NCBI GenBank assembly: GCA_024679065.1
Contig: JAGIQG010000001.1
Coordinates: forward strand, 110,298,001 to 110,362,000
DNA: 64,000 nt
Origin: Sphyrna mokarran
Taxonomy: Eukaryota
Reading direction: 5' to 3'
The notes beneath the pieces are model-generated. The model made no database searches and had not been told where the DNA came from. It saw nothing but the letters and a program-made list of their open reading frames with translations. Below are positions 987-59,280 of this stretch, one piece after another. A program made the position numbers and the translations under genes. Within the stretch, counting starts at the first letter, position 1. Each line of letters opens with the position of its first letter.

Positions 987-1932
987 TTTAATGGAGATTC
1001 CCAGCAAGCAAATAGCCAGACTTCTGTCTGGATCAAAGGTTTTCCAGGGCTTGTAACTCAAATATGCAGTTAGAATTGCAGCCTATTTTACATTCAGTAG
1101 CGTCTACTCCACAAGTATTTAAGATTGAGGATGGTAAGTATCGCAAAATGTAACAAAATAAGAATTTCAGTCCCCTATGCTTGTAATGCTACTGTTGAAT
1201 AAATCTGAATCCAATTTGTTTCTAAATTGCTAGTGTAAGCAAAAGGTTAATCAGATGCTGTCGGTGATATTTATTTTCTCTATCTCATTTTGTTGGCGGG
1301 AAATTAAATTAAGTTTGCAGTGGGTTTAGCAATAAGGTGCGAGCTGCAATGTAGCCACAACAGCACACTGGACCATTTGATATCCCACATGCATGGATTT
1401 CATTTTGTGTTGATTACAGAACAAATTGCGTGTGGCTGTTGCTTATACATAGTCAATCAACAGAGGCATCCAAGGCCTAATCAATTGAGGAAATCAATCT
1501 CGCTGACTGAAATAACTTGCAGAGAAATGAAAGGAAATTGCACCCTGGAGAGGAAGACTGATACCAATGGTCCTTTGTTAGCAAAGTTTTAAGGAGAGCT
1601 TCCATTGATAGCAGGGACCCTGTCAAGCTATTAAAGCATCAAAACATGGGAGAAGCTCTGACAGGGCCATAGCTAATATGGTCATGACTCAGTGAAAATG
1701 GGGAATACGTAGGACAGAACTTTATCTGGCAAGAGGTTCAGGTTTGATGGGGCAGATTAAATTCCCAAGAAGACAAGCGTGTGTCGGACTGTGATCGAGT
1801 ATGTGTCGAGTGTGATCCTGCTTCTTTCTGGTTTTAACTACACACAGTGCAGGGGACCTTCAAGAGAATTAGGGACCATCTAAATATGTAAAGTGACAAC
1901 TAAATCTGAAGTCAACCCTGAATTCTGACTTT

Positions 1933-2228
1933 AAGTTTATTTATTAGTGTCACAAGTATGCTTGCATTAACACTGCAATGAAGTTACTGGGAAAATCCCC
2001 TAATTGCCACATTTTGGTGCCTGTTCAGGTACACTGATGGAGAATTTAGCATGGCCAATGCACCTAAGCAGCATGTTTTTTGGAATGTGGGAGGAAACTA
2101 AAGCAATTGGAAGAAACCCACTCAGACATGGGGAGAATGCACAAATTCCACACAGATAATCACCCAAACTGGGAATCATACCCGGATCCCTGGAGTTGTG
2201 AGGCAGCAGTGCTAACTACTGTGCCACC
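1933..2228 (-). mobile_element. tRNA-derived V-SINE (HE1-like head and core) with an alternative, Rex1-like 3' tail
   Basis: Minus strand: GGTGGCACAGTAGTTAGCACTGCTGCCTCAC head (A-box), V-domain, then a tail ending TACTTGTGACACTAATAAATAAACTT instead of the CR1-type ATTCTATG tail. Confidence 0.85.
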
Positions 2229-2779
2229 TTGCTTTAACAAGCTGCGCACAGGTTTTCCAAGCAATGTGCAACTCACCAAAGTCAATTAGGCAAGAATACA
2301 ACAAGGATTGATGGCTCCATCAAACTGGCAGGTTGGGAAATCTTTAAAAATTGAGGGCAAAAGATTTTGTGGAGGAATGCAAACTGTAACAATTCCATGG
2401 GGATTGACAGCTTAATGGGCCACCACTAACTATATGTGTCGCATAATATTCTCCATTCATAGAATTGAAGAATGTAGCATGAATTACGCCAATAGCAGTC
2501 CATGGTGCTGTCTGTACTTGGAGAATCCGCATGGTTTGCATAGTGCCACTAGAGGCAGGGCAATATTCTCAAGTTTCTCTTTGCTCACAGGACTTGTTCT
2601 GAGAGCATACTTTCAGTGCTTTACAGGTGTCTTCCAACTTCTTTGAAGATATTTCTGCCTTGCTGGACCTTAGTCACTTGATCTGCATTTCCCTGCGTTC
2701 AGCCTTCAGGACAACAAGAGAGCAGGCTGAAGCAGATTTATCTTGCATCTCTGATGAGGAATAGAAAAAGGTACAACAT

Positions 2780-10974: not shown

Positions 10975-11237
10975 CCTTCTCTCATTAGGGAAAAGGTACA
11001 AAAGTTTGACCAACTAAAGAACAGCTTCTTCCCTGCTGCCATCAGACTTTTGAATGGACGTACCTTATATTAAACTGATCCTTCTCTTCACCCTGGCTAT
11101 GACTGTGACACTACATTCTGCATACTACCCTTACCTTTACCCAAGGAATCTATGAACGGTATGCTTTGTCTGTCTAGCGCTTTGGAAACAATACTTTTAA
11201 CTATAGACCAATACATATGACAATAATCAAATCAAAC
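10975..11237 (+). mobile_element. Rex1/Babar LINE 3' end
   Basis: TNQLKNSFFPAAIRLLNG-like C-terminus, 3' UTR and (TCAAA)n tail; tcttcca occurs at both flanks. Confidence 0.85.
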
Positions 11238-11953
11238 CATCTTCCAGAGTATTTCGGTTATTTTTACTTCTCATTTGTACTGTTGCTCTGTCTGTGACAA
11301 CTCATTTACTATCTTCTTTCCTTATTCTACACGTCCTTTCCCAGTGATAGAAGTTTCCATGACTCCTATGGTTTAATCTGTATGCGGAATGTTTCCATCT
11401 GTCTGTCAATTGATGTTGTCATCGCAGCTCTTGTGCATCTTTCTCTGCCTGATATGCACTCAGTTGCTGCTGTTTCTCAGCATTAACCCTGCTGCATTTC
11501 TTCAACGTGGCTGAGTGTCACTTATTTGGGTAGTCATCATTTTCATCCATCCATGGCTTCATGAGCTTTGGCAATGTCTGCAGGCCGCAATGTTGAGAAT
11601 TTGTCCTGGAAGATTTGTTTAGCTGGAAAATAAAGGAAGAAATCTACAGTAACCCTCAATTTAAGACAGTTAAACTGGTTGCAGTTGAAGTTCTGGAAGT
11701 GATCAGCATGGCTGCCCATTGAAACCATGTGGGCTTTCTAATGGTTGTAAGGCACTATGCAGGAGTGCTGGGAGGCTGAGCTGGAGCTGCAAAATCCAGA
11801 ATGGTGAGGTTGATTAAAAATTGTCTCAGCCACAAGATAATGGGAGACCTCCCCATCAAATCTATACCTTATTAAATTGCTGGAATCTTGATGTGAAACC
11901 AGAATGAATTCTGAAGGACAGTGATATATCTTTTGAGTTGGTCCCAGGAAAAG

Positions 11954-18216: not shown

Positions 18217-18337
18217 AATGTTTACTTATTGGTGTCACAAGTAGGCTTACATTAAGATTGCATGAAGTTACTGTGCAAATCCCCTAGTCCCACACTCCAG
18301 TGCATGTCAGGGTACACTGGGAGAATTTAGCATGGCC
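18217..18337 (-). mobile_element. V-SINE 3' part with the Rex1-like tail
   Basis: gtttacttattggtgtcacaagtaggcttacattaa..gaagttactgtg..gagaatttagcatggcc; same tail as 1933 and 48269. Confidence 0.85.
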
Positions 18338-18339
18338 TA

Positions 18340-18576
18340 GTGTCTGTATGGGTTTCCTCCAGATGCTCAGGTTTCCTCCCACAGTCCAAAGATGTGCGGG
18401 TTAGGTTGACTGGCCATGCTAAAAAATGCCCCTTAGAGTCATGAGATGCATACGTTAGAGGGATTAGTGGGTAAATATGTAGGGGTGTGGGGATAGGGCC
18501 TGAGTGGGTTTATGGTCAGTGCAGACTCGACGGGCCAAATGGCCTCGTTCTGCACTGTAAGGTTTCTATGATTCTA
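18340..18576 (+). mobile_element. HE1-like V-SINE lacking its tRNA head
   Basis: gggtttcctcc..ggtttcctcccacagtccaaagatgtgcgggttagg..ctgcactgtaaggtttctatgattcta. Confidence 0.88.
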
Positions 18577-25297: not shown

Positions 25298-25688
25298 GAA
25301 TCATGTGACAGTGCATCCTCAGAGTGCTTGTCCTGGATTCCACAGCCTCCTTCCGCCTCTGCTCCTTCATTACCCCTGGAGGACTTGTAGGAAATGAAAG
25401 ACAGAAGTGATTGCTGACATAGATAAAGGGTTTCAGTTCTACAATGTGTATATCATAGCATTTCAAATCATGGCGACATCAATTCAGAATGAGTAGGTGT
25501 CAAGGGAATGTGTGGAGAGGAGAGAATGACAGCATTTGGGGAGGTGGACGGCAAAGGTTGGCTGTGTGATGTCAATGAAATGACTGTTAATGTTGGCTGT
25601 CCATATGGGATGTGAGATGGGGCTTGAAAGAGCTAGAATGAGCAGAGCCAAAAAGTGTGTTGTTCTGAGGAGTGTTGTGCAGGAGAGT

Positions 25689-25885
25689 TCCAATAGCAAG
25701 AGACCACAGTCCAGCTGCAAGGGACCACATTCCAGCAGCAAGGGACCACATTCCAGCAGCAAGGGACCACATTCCAGCTGCAAGGGACCATGCTCCAGCT
25801 GTAAGGGACCACGCTCCAGCTGTAAGGGACCACACTCCAACTTCAGAGATGATACTCCAGTTGCAAGGAACTACATTCCTGCTGC
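25689..25885. repeat. 21-bp minisatellite, ~9 copies (TCCAGCWGCAAGGGACCACAT)
   Basis: Units start at 25689, 25710, 25731, 25752, 25773, 25794, 25815, 25836 (degenerate) and 25856. Confidence 0.97.
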
Positions 25886-39820: not shown

Positions 39821-39962
39821 GAGAATAAAGAGCTTCACTCACCTTTGCTATATTTCTGAGGTAATTGAAACACTTTTTGCAAAGTATCAGAATTCTAAGG
39901 TTGATGCTCCTGGACCTGACACGCCCTCAACAGACCTGGTGCACCTTATGGGCAGAATTTAC

Positions 39963-40206
39963 TTTGATTTGATTTATATTGTCACATGTATTGGTATACA
40001 ATGAAAAGTTTCTTGTGCGCTATACAGACAAAGCATACCATTCATAGAGAAGGAAAGGAGAGAATGTCGTATTACAGTCATTGCTGGCATGTAAAGAAAG
40101 ATCAACTTAATGTGAGGTAGGTGCATTCAAAAGTCTGATGGCAGCATAGAAGAAGCTGTTCTTGAGTTGGTTGGTACATGACCTCAGACATTTATGTCTT
40201 TCTCCC
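39963..40206 (-). mobile_element. Rex1/Babar LINE 3' end
   Basis: Reverse reads TNQLKNSFFYAAIRLLN and ends ttttcattgtataccaatacatgtgacaatataaatcaaatcaaa; homologous to 10975-11237. Confidence 0.87.
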
Positions 40207-47319: not shown

Positions 47320-48268
47320 ATGGCGTCAGACAGGCTTCTGGATCTGTTTCCAGCTGCTCCTCTATCCCATGGAAAAGCACAGGGGGCCCGGCATCAACAG
47401 GAATGAGGACCGGCTGATTCCTTCCTCCCAGGAGACCCTGGGATTATCCAGTCCATCTGACTCCCCGCTTCCTTTAACCGACACACCTGCAGATCTGGAC
47501 ACTGAGGAGGCTGGCACTACCGCATCTGTGCTGCCTGAAAGTAGGCTGGGGTTCTCAAAGTTCCTTCCCTCCAGGGTACATCTGCTAAGATCACCTTAGA
47601 CAACAGGGTGTGGCAGCTGTGGATCCTGAGGAAAAACTAAGGCATTGTGGTCGGGTTTGGAATAGTCACAAGTGATGAAAAGTGTGGTAAGATAGTGAAC
47701 ACCATGTCACCACCATTTTATTTATTAAAAGACACGTTATGCACCCACCAAGTGCTTCCTTGCTCTCATTTCATTACAATATACACTGTCATTCTCCATA
47801 GGATATCCAGTGACAGCACCTCCGTCATCTCCTTTCAGTGAGGATGTCAGCCGAATTGTTGTCCTTCCCTCACATAGTCACAATGCAGTGACACTGCTTG
47901 TCATTCTGATTTGCTGGTAGAATCATGTCAAGCAAGAATCTGTCAGAGATATGAGGAGCATTGCTTGGTCAAGTGGGGATATCTCCTCTTCCCAATCTGT
48001 GAGAGGAGAACTAATCATCAGTCAGTCACTGCCTGCAGGAGAGTACACAAGGAGTCATAATCAACACATGGGGCCACCTGTGCCCATTGCTCCAGGTGGG
48101 AAAACATATGGTCCTTTCTACTATAGAATAAAGGATTACCGCAGGAGCACCTGATACTGATGTAATGTCACAAATCTAAAATCTGGTTGATCATCTTGTT
48201 GAGTACTAAGTTGTTTGTAGATCTGTAAATAAACAAATGTGGTTTTTACAAGTAACAGCTTATGTTTT

Positions 48269-48412
48269 AAGTTTATTTATTAGTGTCACAAGTAGACTTA
48301 CATTAACACTGCAATGAAGTTACTGTGAAAATCCCCAAGTTGCCACACTATGGCGCCTGTTTGGCTGCACTGAGGGACAATTTAGCAAGGCCAGTGCACC
48401 TAACCAGCATGC
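48269..48412 (-). mobile_element. V-SINE 3' part with the Rex1-like tail
   Basis: aagtttatttattagtgtcacaagtagacttacattaacactgcaatgaagttactgtgaaaatcccc..gcacctaaccagcatg. Confidence 0.88.
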
Positions 48413-48910
48413 TTATGACAGCAAACTTAGGGCAACAGGCAAATCCTAAAGAAACCCCATATAAGCCCCGAACCCAAGAAAAACATGGTGGAGGCTGGTG
48501 GTTTCTGTCAACTATTTATGTGCATCATCTGAAACATGTCGGTAGCAAGCAAAGTGTAAAAACCCAGCAATACTTCAAACTGGAAGCTCTCTCTTAACTC
48601 CATCTTTCTTTCCATCTTTCTTATGTTTGCTTTCAGTACTGAACTTGACATTGAATTCAAACTAACACATCTTCACGAAGATACCACGGGCCACAGTACC
48701 AATACTGCAATTGATTGGCTCAGTAGATATAGGGCAGAATCTTATGGCTCCATCATGGTGTGGGCAACAGCACAGTTTCTAATCATTACAAGTTCCACTG
48801 CAAAATCCCATAGAAGGTCTGTGTGTGAACGTAAGTTTAATGAACATTGTCGTAGTTTGTTCTCTGCTAACTATAAAATTGGGTCAATTATTGCAGCATG
48901 CCTATCTCAG

Positions 48911-59053: not shown

Positions 59054-59280
59054 AAAGCAAAATACTGTGGAGGCTGGAATCTGAGACAAATCTGAGGAGA
59101 CCTGACAGCATCAGTGAAGAGAGGATAGAGTCAACGTTTTAAGCCTGGATGATTCTTTGCCAGGGCTGCTCTTCGTCAGAGCTCTGAAGAAGGGTCATCC
59201 AGACTTGAAACATTGGTTCTATTCACTCTCCACAGATGCTGTCAGATCTGCTGAGATTTTCCAACATTTTCCTGTTTGTG
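59054..59280. mobile_element. Palindromic Penelope-type mini-element (inverted terminal repeats) with a hammerhead motif
   Basis: Arm 59099-59167 is the imperfect reverse complement of arm 59180-59248. + strand reads agagct-CTGAAGA-a-GGGTC-atcca-GACTT-GAAA-ca-TT-ggttct (59178-59220). Confidence 0.75.

Follow-up and report, generated by a model that had tools for sequence, protein, structure and literature searches.

The stretch of DNA that we analyzed (the window; 64,000 nucleotides of Sphyrna mokarran contig JAGIQG010000001.1, positions 110,298,001 to 110,362,000 of the forward strand) contains three copies of one SINE family and two 5′-truncated 3′ ends of a LINE family, RexA (Table 1). The original prediction had described the three SINE copies as sharing a V-SINE body, and the best preserved of them as having a tail that resembles the 3′ stem-loop of a Rex1-type LINE. 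The tail at 48266-48345 (minus strand) is as it was given, with a 26-nt insert (48295-48320) splitting the two arms, and all three copies share this tail; however, the head and the V-domain are present only in the copy at 1930-2234. The copy at 48269, contrary to what had been thought, is not the best preserved: it is 5′ truncated, retaining the short piece of body given in Table 1, and the copy at 18219-18337 is truncated as well. The latter copy lies head to head with a separate V-SINE that has a CR1-type tail (plus strand, about 18340-18574). The two Rex-type LINE 3′ ends that had been noted are indeed present, at 11082-11255 (+) and 39947-40098 (-); the two share 82% of their bases over 111 nt, and the family to which both belong is abundant. 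The window also contains a tandem array with a 21-nt period (25667-25860) and an inverted repeat (59088-59259), the 80-nt arms of which are 12 nt apart and 78% complementary.

Table 1. SINE and LINE features of the window
Feature	Position	Strand	Basis or remarks
Full-length SINE copy	1930..2234	-	Body profile match 2046-2234, tail profile match 1930-2046; parts: tRNA-type head, V-domain body, Rex 5′-end piece, Rex 3′ hairpin, terminal repeat
Decayed Rex 5′-end piece of the full-length copy	2002..2021	-	Motif scan; family-level match to RexA +7 to +26
A-box-like site in the head of the full-length copy	2215-2226		
5′-truncated RexA LINE 3′ end, candidate partner family	11009..11255	+	
5′-truncated SINE copy	18219..18337	-	Profile search
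5′-truncated RexA LINE 3′ end, candidate partner family	39947..40200	-	
5′-truncated SINE copy of the original prediction	48266..48414	-	~33 nt of body and the whole tail
Right arm with the A-rich stretch and the short terminal repeat	48266..48294	-	20/23 identical to RexA (consensus); repeat unit differs
SINE-specific 26-nt loop insert, predicted stem extension	48295..48320	-	
Left arm of the Rex-type 3′ hairpin	48321..48331	-	10/11 identical to RexA, consensus level
Piece matching the extreme 5′ end of RexA (+7 to +26)	48338..48357	-	

Judged by its sequence, the element is a tRNA-headed V-SINE family with a non-CR1 tail. We found a tRNA-derived head, a V-domain of ~80 bp, a high-copy interspersed distribution and a fixed 3′ end with a short repeat; the copies have this 3′ end in common and their flanks are unrelated. 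The head was called tRNA-derived from the general patterns of the A box and the B box. The family consensus shows the two boxes clearly, and the copy at 1930-2234 shows the A box; Rfam gave no tRNA match in that decayed copy. Compared by eye, the body is ~90% identical over ~89 nt to the published V-domain of Ac1/MER6 (PMC6887750 supplement). There is also a minor subfamily, in which 25 nt are missing at the junction of body and tail and two bases are missing after the hairpin. At two of 30 loci (L214 and L216, around 1330-1505), the 5′ part of the SINE is inverted relative to the tail, like the products of twin priming.

The SINE is abundant. A genome search with its tail gave 964 candidates, and the best 40, which were scored, are 95-100% identical over the tail. 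We found 45 SINE tails in a random sample of 600 kb (60 pieces of 10 kb, taken at even intervals from large contigs), corresponding to ~2x10^5 copies genome-wide if the sample is typical. The V body is matched 122 times in the same 600 kb, and leads into the Rex-type tail in 36 cases and into a CR1-type tail in 53; another 14 matches have a different tail or none, and 19 are cut at the 3′ side. A third type of V-SINE tail, neither CR1-type nor Rex, was seen in seven random-sample copies (L101, L109, L118, L126, L133, L137, L140). Sequencing runs of at least eight organisms contain the Rex-type tail, based on matches to 63-75% of eight sampled words, and in four of those runs the tail is joined to the same V-SINE body and no variant of the stem reaches 10%. 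Fewer than five of the sampled tail words were matched in RNA runs. Target-site duplications were not in excess in 110 copies of the SINE, nor in 86 copies with the CR1-type tail; thus, insertion signatures do not separate Rex-tailed from CR1-tailed V-SINEs.

The candidate partner, RexA, encodes an RVT_1 domain followed by PF09004. Its best homologs are RT proteins of the same build (49-86% identity), many with PF09004; those that are named are mostly from teleosts, and none has a clade name. We take PF09004, together with the domain order and the motif set of RexA, to be a mark of Rex1; we found no paper linking DUF1891 to Rex1. In a search with PF09004, the best 150 of 38,228 candidates were scored and the loci run into the RexA 3′ UTR, with one of the 30 loci examined belonging to a second family, RexB. 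Motifs in broken RexA frames look by eye like those that we assume to be typical of an endonuclease; a Pfam endonuclease match was obtained with none of four RexA fragments, and one decayed copy has no long frame in ~850 nt upstream. The name Rex1 for RexA is based on this domain order and motif set, on its pentamer repeats and on a primer site, and no tool assigns the clade. In 27 of 40 RexA loci, the best site of the forward Rex1 primer (PMC4635592) falls at the same position (13-15/21); the reverse primer of that paper has no such fixed site. Rex1 is described there as having a 3′ UTR followed by tandem repeats of 5-7 nt, and as being frequently 5′ truncated; RexA, as in Rex1, has a terminal pentamer repeat and truncated copies. 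Rex1 elements are reported from elasmobranchs, and are reported to have no ORF1 (PMC13343379). RexA is the dominant Rex1-type LINE of this genome (20 RexA and no RexB 3′ ends in 600 kb). RexB (L071, L151-L180) is also of the Rex1 type but rarer; its stem has no bulge, its loop is 17 nt long and its terminal repeat is not that of RexA.

The tail of the SINE consists of a 20-base piece that matches the start of RexA, followed by a hairpin that matches the RexA 3′ end. In a local alignment of the last ~60 nt of the tail, the match to the RexA 3′ end has z=5.0, and 0 of 2000 shuffles were as good; the same alignment gave z=0.0 with RexB and z=0.4 with the CR1-type SINE tail. A better match to a non-Rex1 LINE would have spoken against the Rex1 partnership proposed in the original prediction, and no other LINE end that we compared fitted the tail better. 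We also scored the two arms of the hairpin with a matrix that allows a free gap between them and was trained on 38 RexA copies; this replaced a covariance model of RexA and RexB, the alignment of which misplaced the right arm. The SINE consensus scores 35.7 bits, compared to 44.9 for RexA and 15.8 for RexB, with a background maximum of 21.3 bits among 1,187,103 positions. Individual SINE tails from random loci also score well: 28 of 46 reach at least 20 bits and 18 of 46 reach at least 25 bits, a score found at no background position. The SINE nonetheless differs from RexA in several respects. The matched pieces are short (20 + 11 + 23 nt) and ~12% divergent, the loop is 26 nt rather than 6, and the terminal repeat units are not alike.

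The original prediction drew on the structure of this hairpin, and named a stem pair that covaries between the SINE and the LINE. An eight-pair stem is kept in all four family consensi studied, with loops of 6, 6, 17 and 26 nt, and in RexB the stem has another double change and a G-U pair. The covarying pair itself is found at the consensus level (A in 95/109 and T in 96/109 SINE copies; T in 31/38 and A in 37/38 RexA copies), but it is one event, and in 2.2% of trials every pair survives two random changes in the stem. Its register is also degenerate, there being two Ts with which the SINE A is predicted to pair (at probabilities of 0.45 and 0.48). We regard this single pair as real but weak evidence by itself. 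The LINE loop, for which one fixed sequence had been given, varies among RexA copies. The suggestion that the SINE loop extends the stem agrees with the fold of the consensus (pair probabilities 0.66-0.85), but among the folds of eight single copies there was none with clearly greater stability than shuffles (z -1.86 to +0.83). A stretch of 12 bases in the SINE loop (window 48295-48320) matches the RexA 5′ region in antisense (L338, L318, L321); this match is marginal, with ~0.04 expected by chance.

The earlier reading overlooked the two-ended build of the tail. Directly after the V-domain, the SINE matches RexA +7 to +26 at 18 of 20 bases, when CpG decay is allowed for. RexA is ~3.7-3.8 kb long and has a sharp start in 24 of 30 loci, as it does in contigs of four other runs. 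The first bases of RexA resemble what we take to be a YY1 site, and these YY1-like bases, which lie just before the matched 20-mer, are altered in the SINE. With a matrix of the 5′ piece, the SINE consensus scores 23.9 bits, whereas the background does not exceed 17.0, and the 99.99th percentile is passed by 30 of 40 SINE copies taken at random; with a matrix over RexA bases 1-30, the SINE scores only 12.4, under the background maximum of 15.6. When single real copies were tiled along RexA, the best 20-mer match was 17/20 and was located at the start of the LINE. A match of 17/20 anywhere in the LINE was reached by 1 of 1000 shuffles and, as the match was picked after looking, its chance anywhere in the LINE is 0.001-0.02; the position at the RexA start alone lowers this to between 1e-6 and 3e-5. 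Thus, the link between the SINE and RexA is strengthened by a second, independent match, at the 5′ end of the same LINE.

Two-ended copies occur in RexA itself. Among 109 copies not chosen by their 5′ end (the 3′ ends left after dropping 7 of 116 without enough flank), four have the RexA 5′ end joined directly to the 3′ end, and ~96% of RexA copies have no 5′ end. Two-ended copies account for 2 of 20 in the random sample, and for 13 of 30 loci that were chosen by the RexA 5′ region, each of the 13 having its own junction between the 5′ piece and the 3′ end. These copies have the first 100-330 nt followed by a 3′ piece, with junctions that are all different (L347, L350, L351, L353, L355, L359-L361, L363, L364, L366, L368, L370, L127, L148). 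The varied junctions suggest that the template jumped repeatedly to the 5′ end in the course of insertion. Splicing was considered as the origin of the deleted copies and rejected, since both breakpoints vary (by eye).

Two further kinds of element share the Rex 5′ end. The 5′ motif followed by a base other than that of RexA has 27 matches genome-wide, comprising 18 RexA starts (mostly short deleted copies), eight copies of a family that we call Y, and the locus L395. At L395 (1500-1595), there is a SINE tail of the minor subfamily that has no head and opens with a Rex start that is intact; it may be a relic of a precursor or the product of a template switch between SINE and LINE and, as one of 276 tails in the loci collected, could be a one-off chimera. 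Family Y (L375, L377-L379, L382, L387, L388, L396, L398-L427) is a low-copy, non-coding family with 64 candidates. It is at least 500 nt long, its 5′ end was not reached, and no Rex ORF adjoins it at the 30 loci examined. The 3′ module of family Y is fixed, with ~40 nt of the Rex 5′ end followed by ~95 nt of the Rex 3′ end, and has a 6-nt loop of its own. Family Y and the SINE share one variant base (T in 20/25).

The 5′ piece is kept by both non-autonomous families, the SINE and family Y, although most RexA copies are without it. It is an even question, in our judgment, whether the 3′ hairpin suffices for mobilization and the 5′ piece is a passenger that came from a short two-ended Rex donor copy. 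Two-ended RexA copies are common enough to serve as donors (4/109, and very short ones exist), the 5′ piece has a predicted stem (4 bp with a 7-nt loop) that is not unusually stable, and the SINE and family Y may descend from one capture; SINE copies truncated to the hairpin also exist, but are uninformative on the template RNA. Less easily explained by a passenger is that both non-autonomous families found carry the 5′ end when ~96% of RexA copies have lost it, and that the two SINE subfamilies both retain the piece and its CpGs, even though one has lost the adjoining 25 nt. That the 5′ piece would be needed for mobilization of the SINE is a serious possibility, but one against which we lean, and the case is weakened if the SINE and family Y share one origin. 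We are a little more doubtful still of a general form of this proposal, in which the Rex1 ORF2 protein would recognize both ends of its RNA (the 5′ hairpin and the 3′ stem), yielding the deleted copies with 5′ and 3′ ends; parasites would then have to carry both signals, which the SINE would pack into ~95 nt. If such two-ended recognition is true, the ~95-nt tail of the SINE is a natural minimal substrate of a LINE clade that has no ORF1. We found no study of Rex1 RNA recognition in the literature.

We searched for other LINEs that might be the partner. A pattern of the tail with a shorter loop had 585 matches, and the 100 listed all read as deletion variants of the SINE. The hairpin without the upstream Gs of the SINE had 106 matches, with no common non-SINE upstream sequence in the 30 examined, and the tail without the body junction had 602, of which 30 were examined and 29 had the V body upstream. 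Of the best 150 RT matches, 40 were analyzed, and these gave 33 RexA ends, two RexB ends and five loci at which no end was found. The loop and spacer of the SINE were found in a LINE at none of 40 RT loci and at none of 30 and 30 loci of two exclusion patterns. RexB was rejected as the partner, given its z, its matrix score of 15.8 bits and its 0 copies in 600 kb. As no LINE with the loop of the SINE was found in the subsets examined, the partner may be a sister or an ancestor of RexA.

These results bear on a second alternative, which we consider unlikely: that the donor was another Rex1 family, rare or extinct, which had the 5′-like motif and the long loop in its own 3′ UTR, such that the SINE took an ordinary single tail and RexA is only a relative of that donor. 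Such a donor could explain why the variant base of the SINE is found in family Y but is absent from RexA (19/20 versus 18/20 matches) and why the loops differ between families (6, 6, 17 and 26 nt), and it might have escaped us since the upstream end of family Y was not reached and the genome searches cover the best 40-150 matches. However, no such LINE was found in the 40 RT loci, the 30 PF09004 loci or the exclusion-pattern loci, no Rex ORF adjoins family Y, and RexA is abundant and of the same age as the SINE.

Indeed, when CpG columns are left out, the SINE tail has a median divergence from the consensus of 0.125 (n=86), the SINE body one of 0.136 (n=66) and RexA one of 0.148 (n=38), with no significant difference between the SINE and RexA (p=0.16, 0.63). 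Among loci totaling 1.86 Mb, we found one SINE inside a long RexA copy (L367) and one RexA copy inside a SINE (L359). Thus the overlap in age that a SINE-Rex partnership calls for is seen, both in the medians and in nesting once in each direction. V bodies with the CR1-type tail, which are a mixed group, are older, with a median of 0.167 (n=106). It is highly improbable that the likeness of the tail is ancestral or accidental and that an enzyme of the CR1 or L2 type continued to copy the SINE, for although CR1-tailed V-SINEs are abundant in the same genome (53 versus 36 in 600 kb) and the lack of target-site duplications in either type provides no discrimination, the two ends of a single LINE are each matched significantly and separately, the tail is unlike the CR1-type tail (z=0.4), and bodies of the SINE are younger than those with the CR1-type tail (0.136 versus 0.167, p=3e-5). 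From these comparisons, we consider it likely that the SINE was copied by the RT of RexA or of a close sister family.

If RexA or a close sister is the partner, an HE1-type SINE would most likely have become fused to a short Rex copy of the two-ended kind, through recombination, a template switch or read-through, losing the CR1-type tail and thereby moving from a CR1-type to a Rex1-type enzyme. Polymerase III would transcribe the SINE from its head, and the Rex ORF2 protein would bind the stem and the A-rich stretch, prime on the terminal repeat and tolerate different loops. By analogy with stringent LINEs (PMC3747384), the stem and the A-rich stretch would be the recognition site. The least certain step is that the 5′ piece would have been kept since it is helpful to mobilization.

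The known V-SINE of sharks and rays, HE1, has HER1 as its partner LINE (PMC3747384 Table 1). The SINE described here resembles HE1 in its tRNA-type head and V-domain body, and a CR1-tailed version with a near-identical body is present in the same genome. It differs in that its tail is made of Rex-derived pieces and is unlike the CR1-type tail of this genome (z=0.4). As SINEBase, by its definition, places SINEs that differ in LINE-derived region into separate families (PMC3531059), this SINE is a family separate from HE1. Tail exchange is described as a standard route of SINE evolution (PMC5499810, PMC4824008, PMC11481361), and the partners given for V-SINEs in PMC3747384, PMC11481361 and PMC4824008 are HER1, CR1-3DR/ZfL3, LfR1, L2, CR1-Zenon and Nimb. 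A Rex1 partner for a V-SINE had been thought unreported, and these V-SINE lists are indeed without Rex1; however, Rex1 partners are known for other SINE superfamilies. The salmonid LINE RSg-1 belongs to the Rex1 clade. It is listed as the partner of SlmI, HpaI and OS-SINE1, and Rex1-24_NV is listed as that of the sea-anemone SINE2-5_NV (PMC3747384 Table 1). These SINEs are like ours in having a tail from the 3′ end of a Rex1-type LINE, but they are CORE, Deu or plain tRNA SINEs and no 5′ piece is reported for them in that source.

Our literature search found no description of a Rex1-tailed V-SINE or of a bipartite Rex1, and repeat libraries may hold the family. Rex1-type SINE partners are already known, and it is the two-ended Rex1 V-SINE module that is new in the literature searched. 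A Rex1-type partner is added to those reported for V-SINEs, and Rex1 joins the few LINE clades from which two-ended non-autonomous copies arise and SINEs obtain 5′ pieces. The annotation of elasmobranch repeats is also affected: among the 103 V-SINE bodies of the sample that are intact on the 3′ side, 36 would be wrongly classed as dependent on CR1. PMC5786205 poses as an open question why two-ended copies come from certain LINE clades only, and with a ~95-nt module behind ~2x10^5 insertions, the importance of the 5′ end in cis can be tested directly.

Known bipartite SINEs are Bov-tA, Mar-1, AfroSINE, WALLSI2, SINE2-1_ACar and SINE1-1_EBu (PMC5786205, PMC7245038). As described in these sources, such SINEs have a small-RNA head, sometimes a conserved body, and 5′ and 3′ pieces of one LINE, with internally deleted LINE copies as precursors. 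The SINE of S. mokarran is similar, with one piece from the 5′ end of a LINE and another from the extreme 3′ end of the same LINE. In the account of Kojima (2018), the only LINEs said to have given 5′ pieces to SINEs are RTE and Vingi, and bipartite non-autonomous LINEs are traced only to RTE, Ingi, Vingi and R2 (PMC5786205); the hagfish paper of 2020 adds RTE cases (PMC7245038). Compared to these bipartite SINEs, the SINE described here has a Rex1-type donor, a V-domain body and LINE-derived pieces that are very short.
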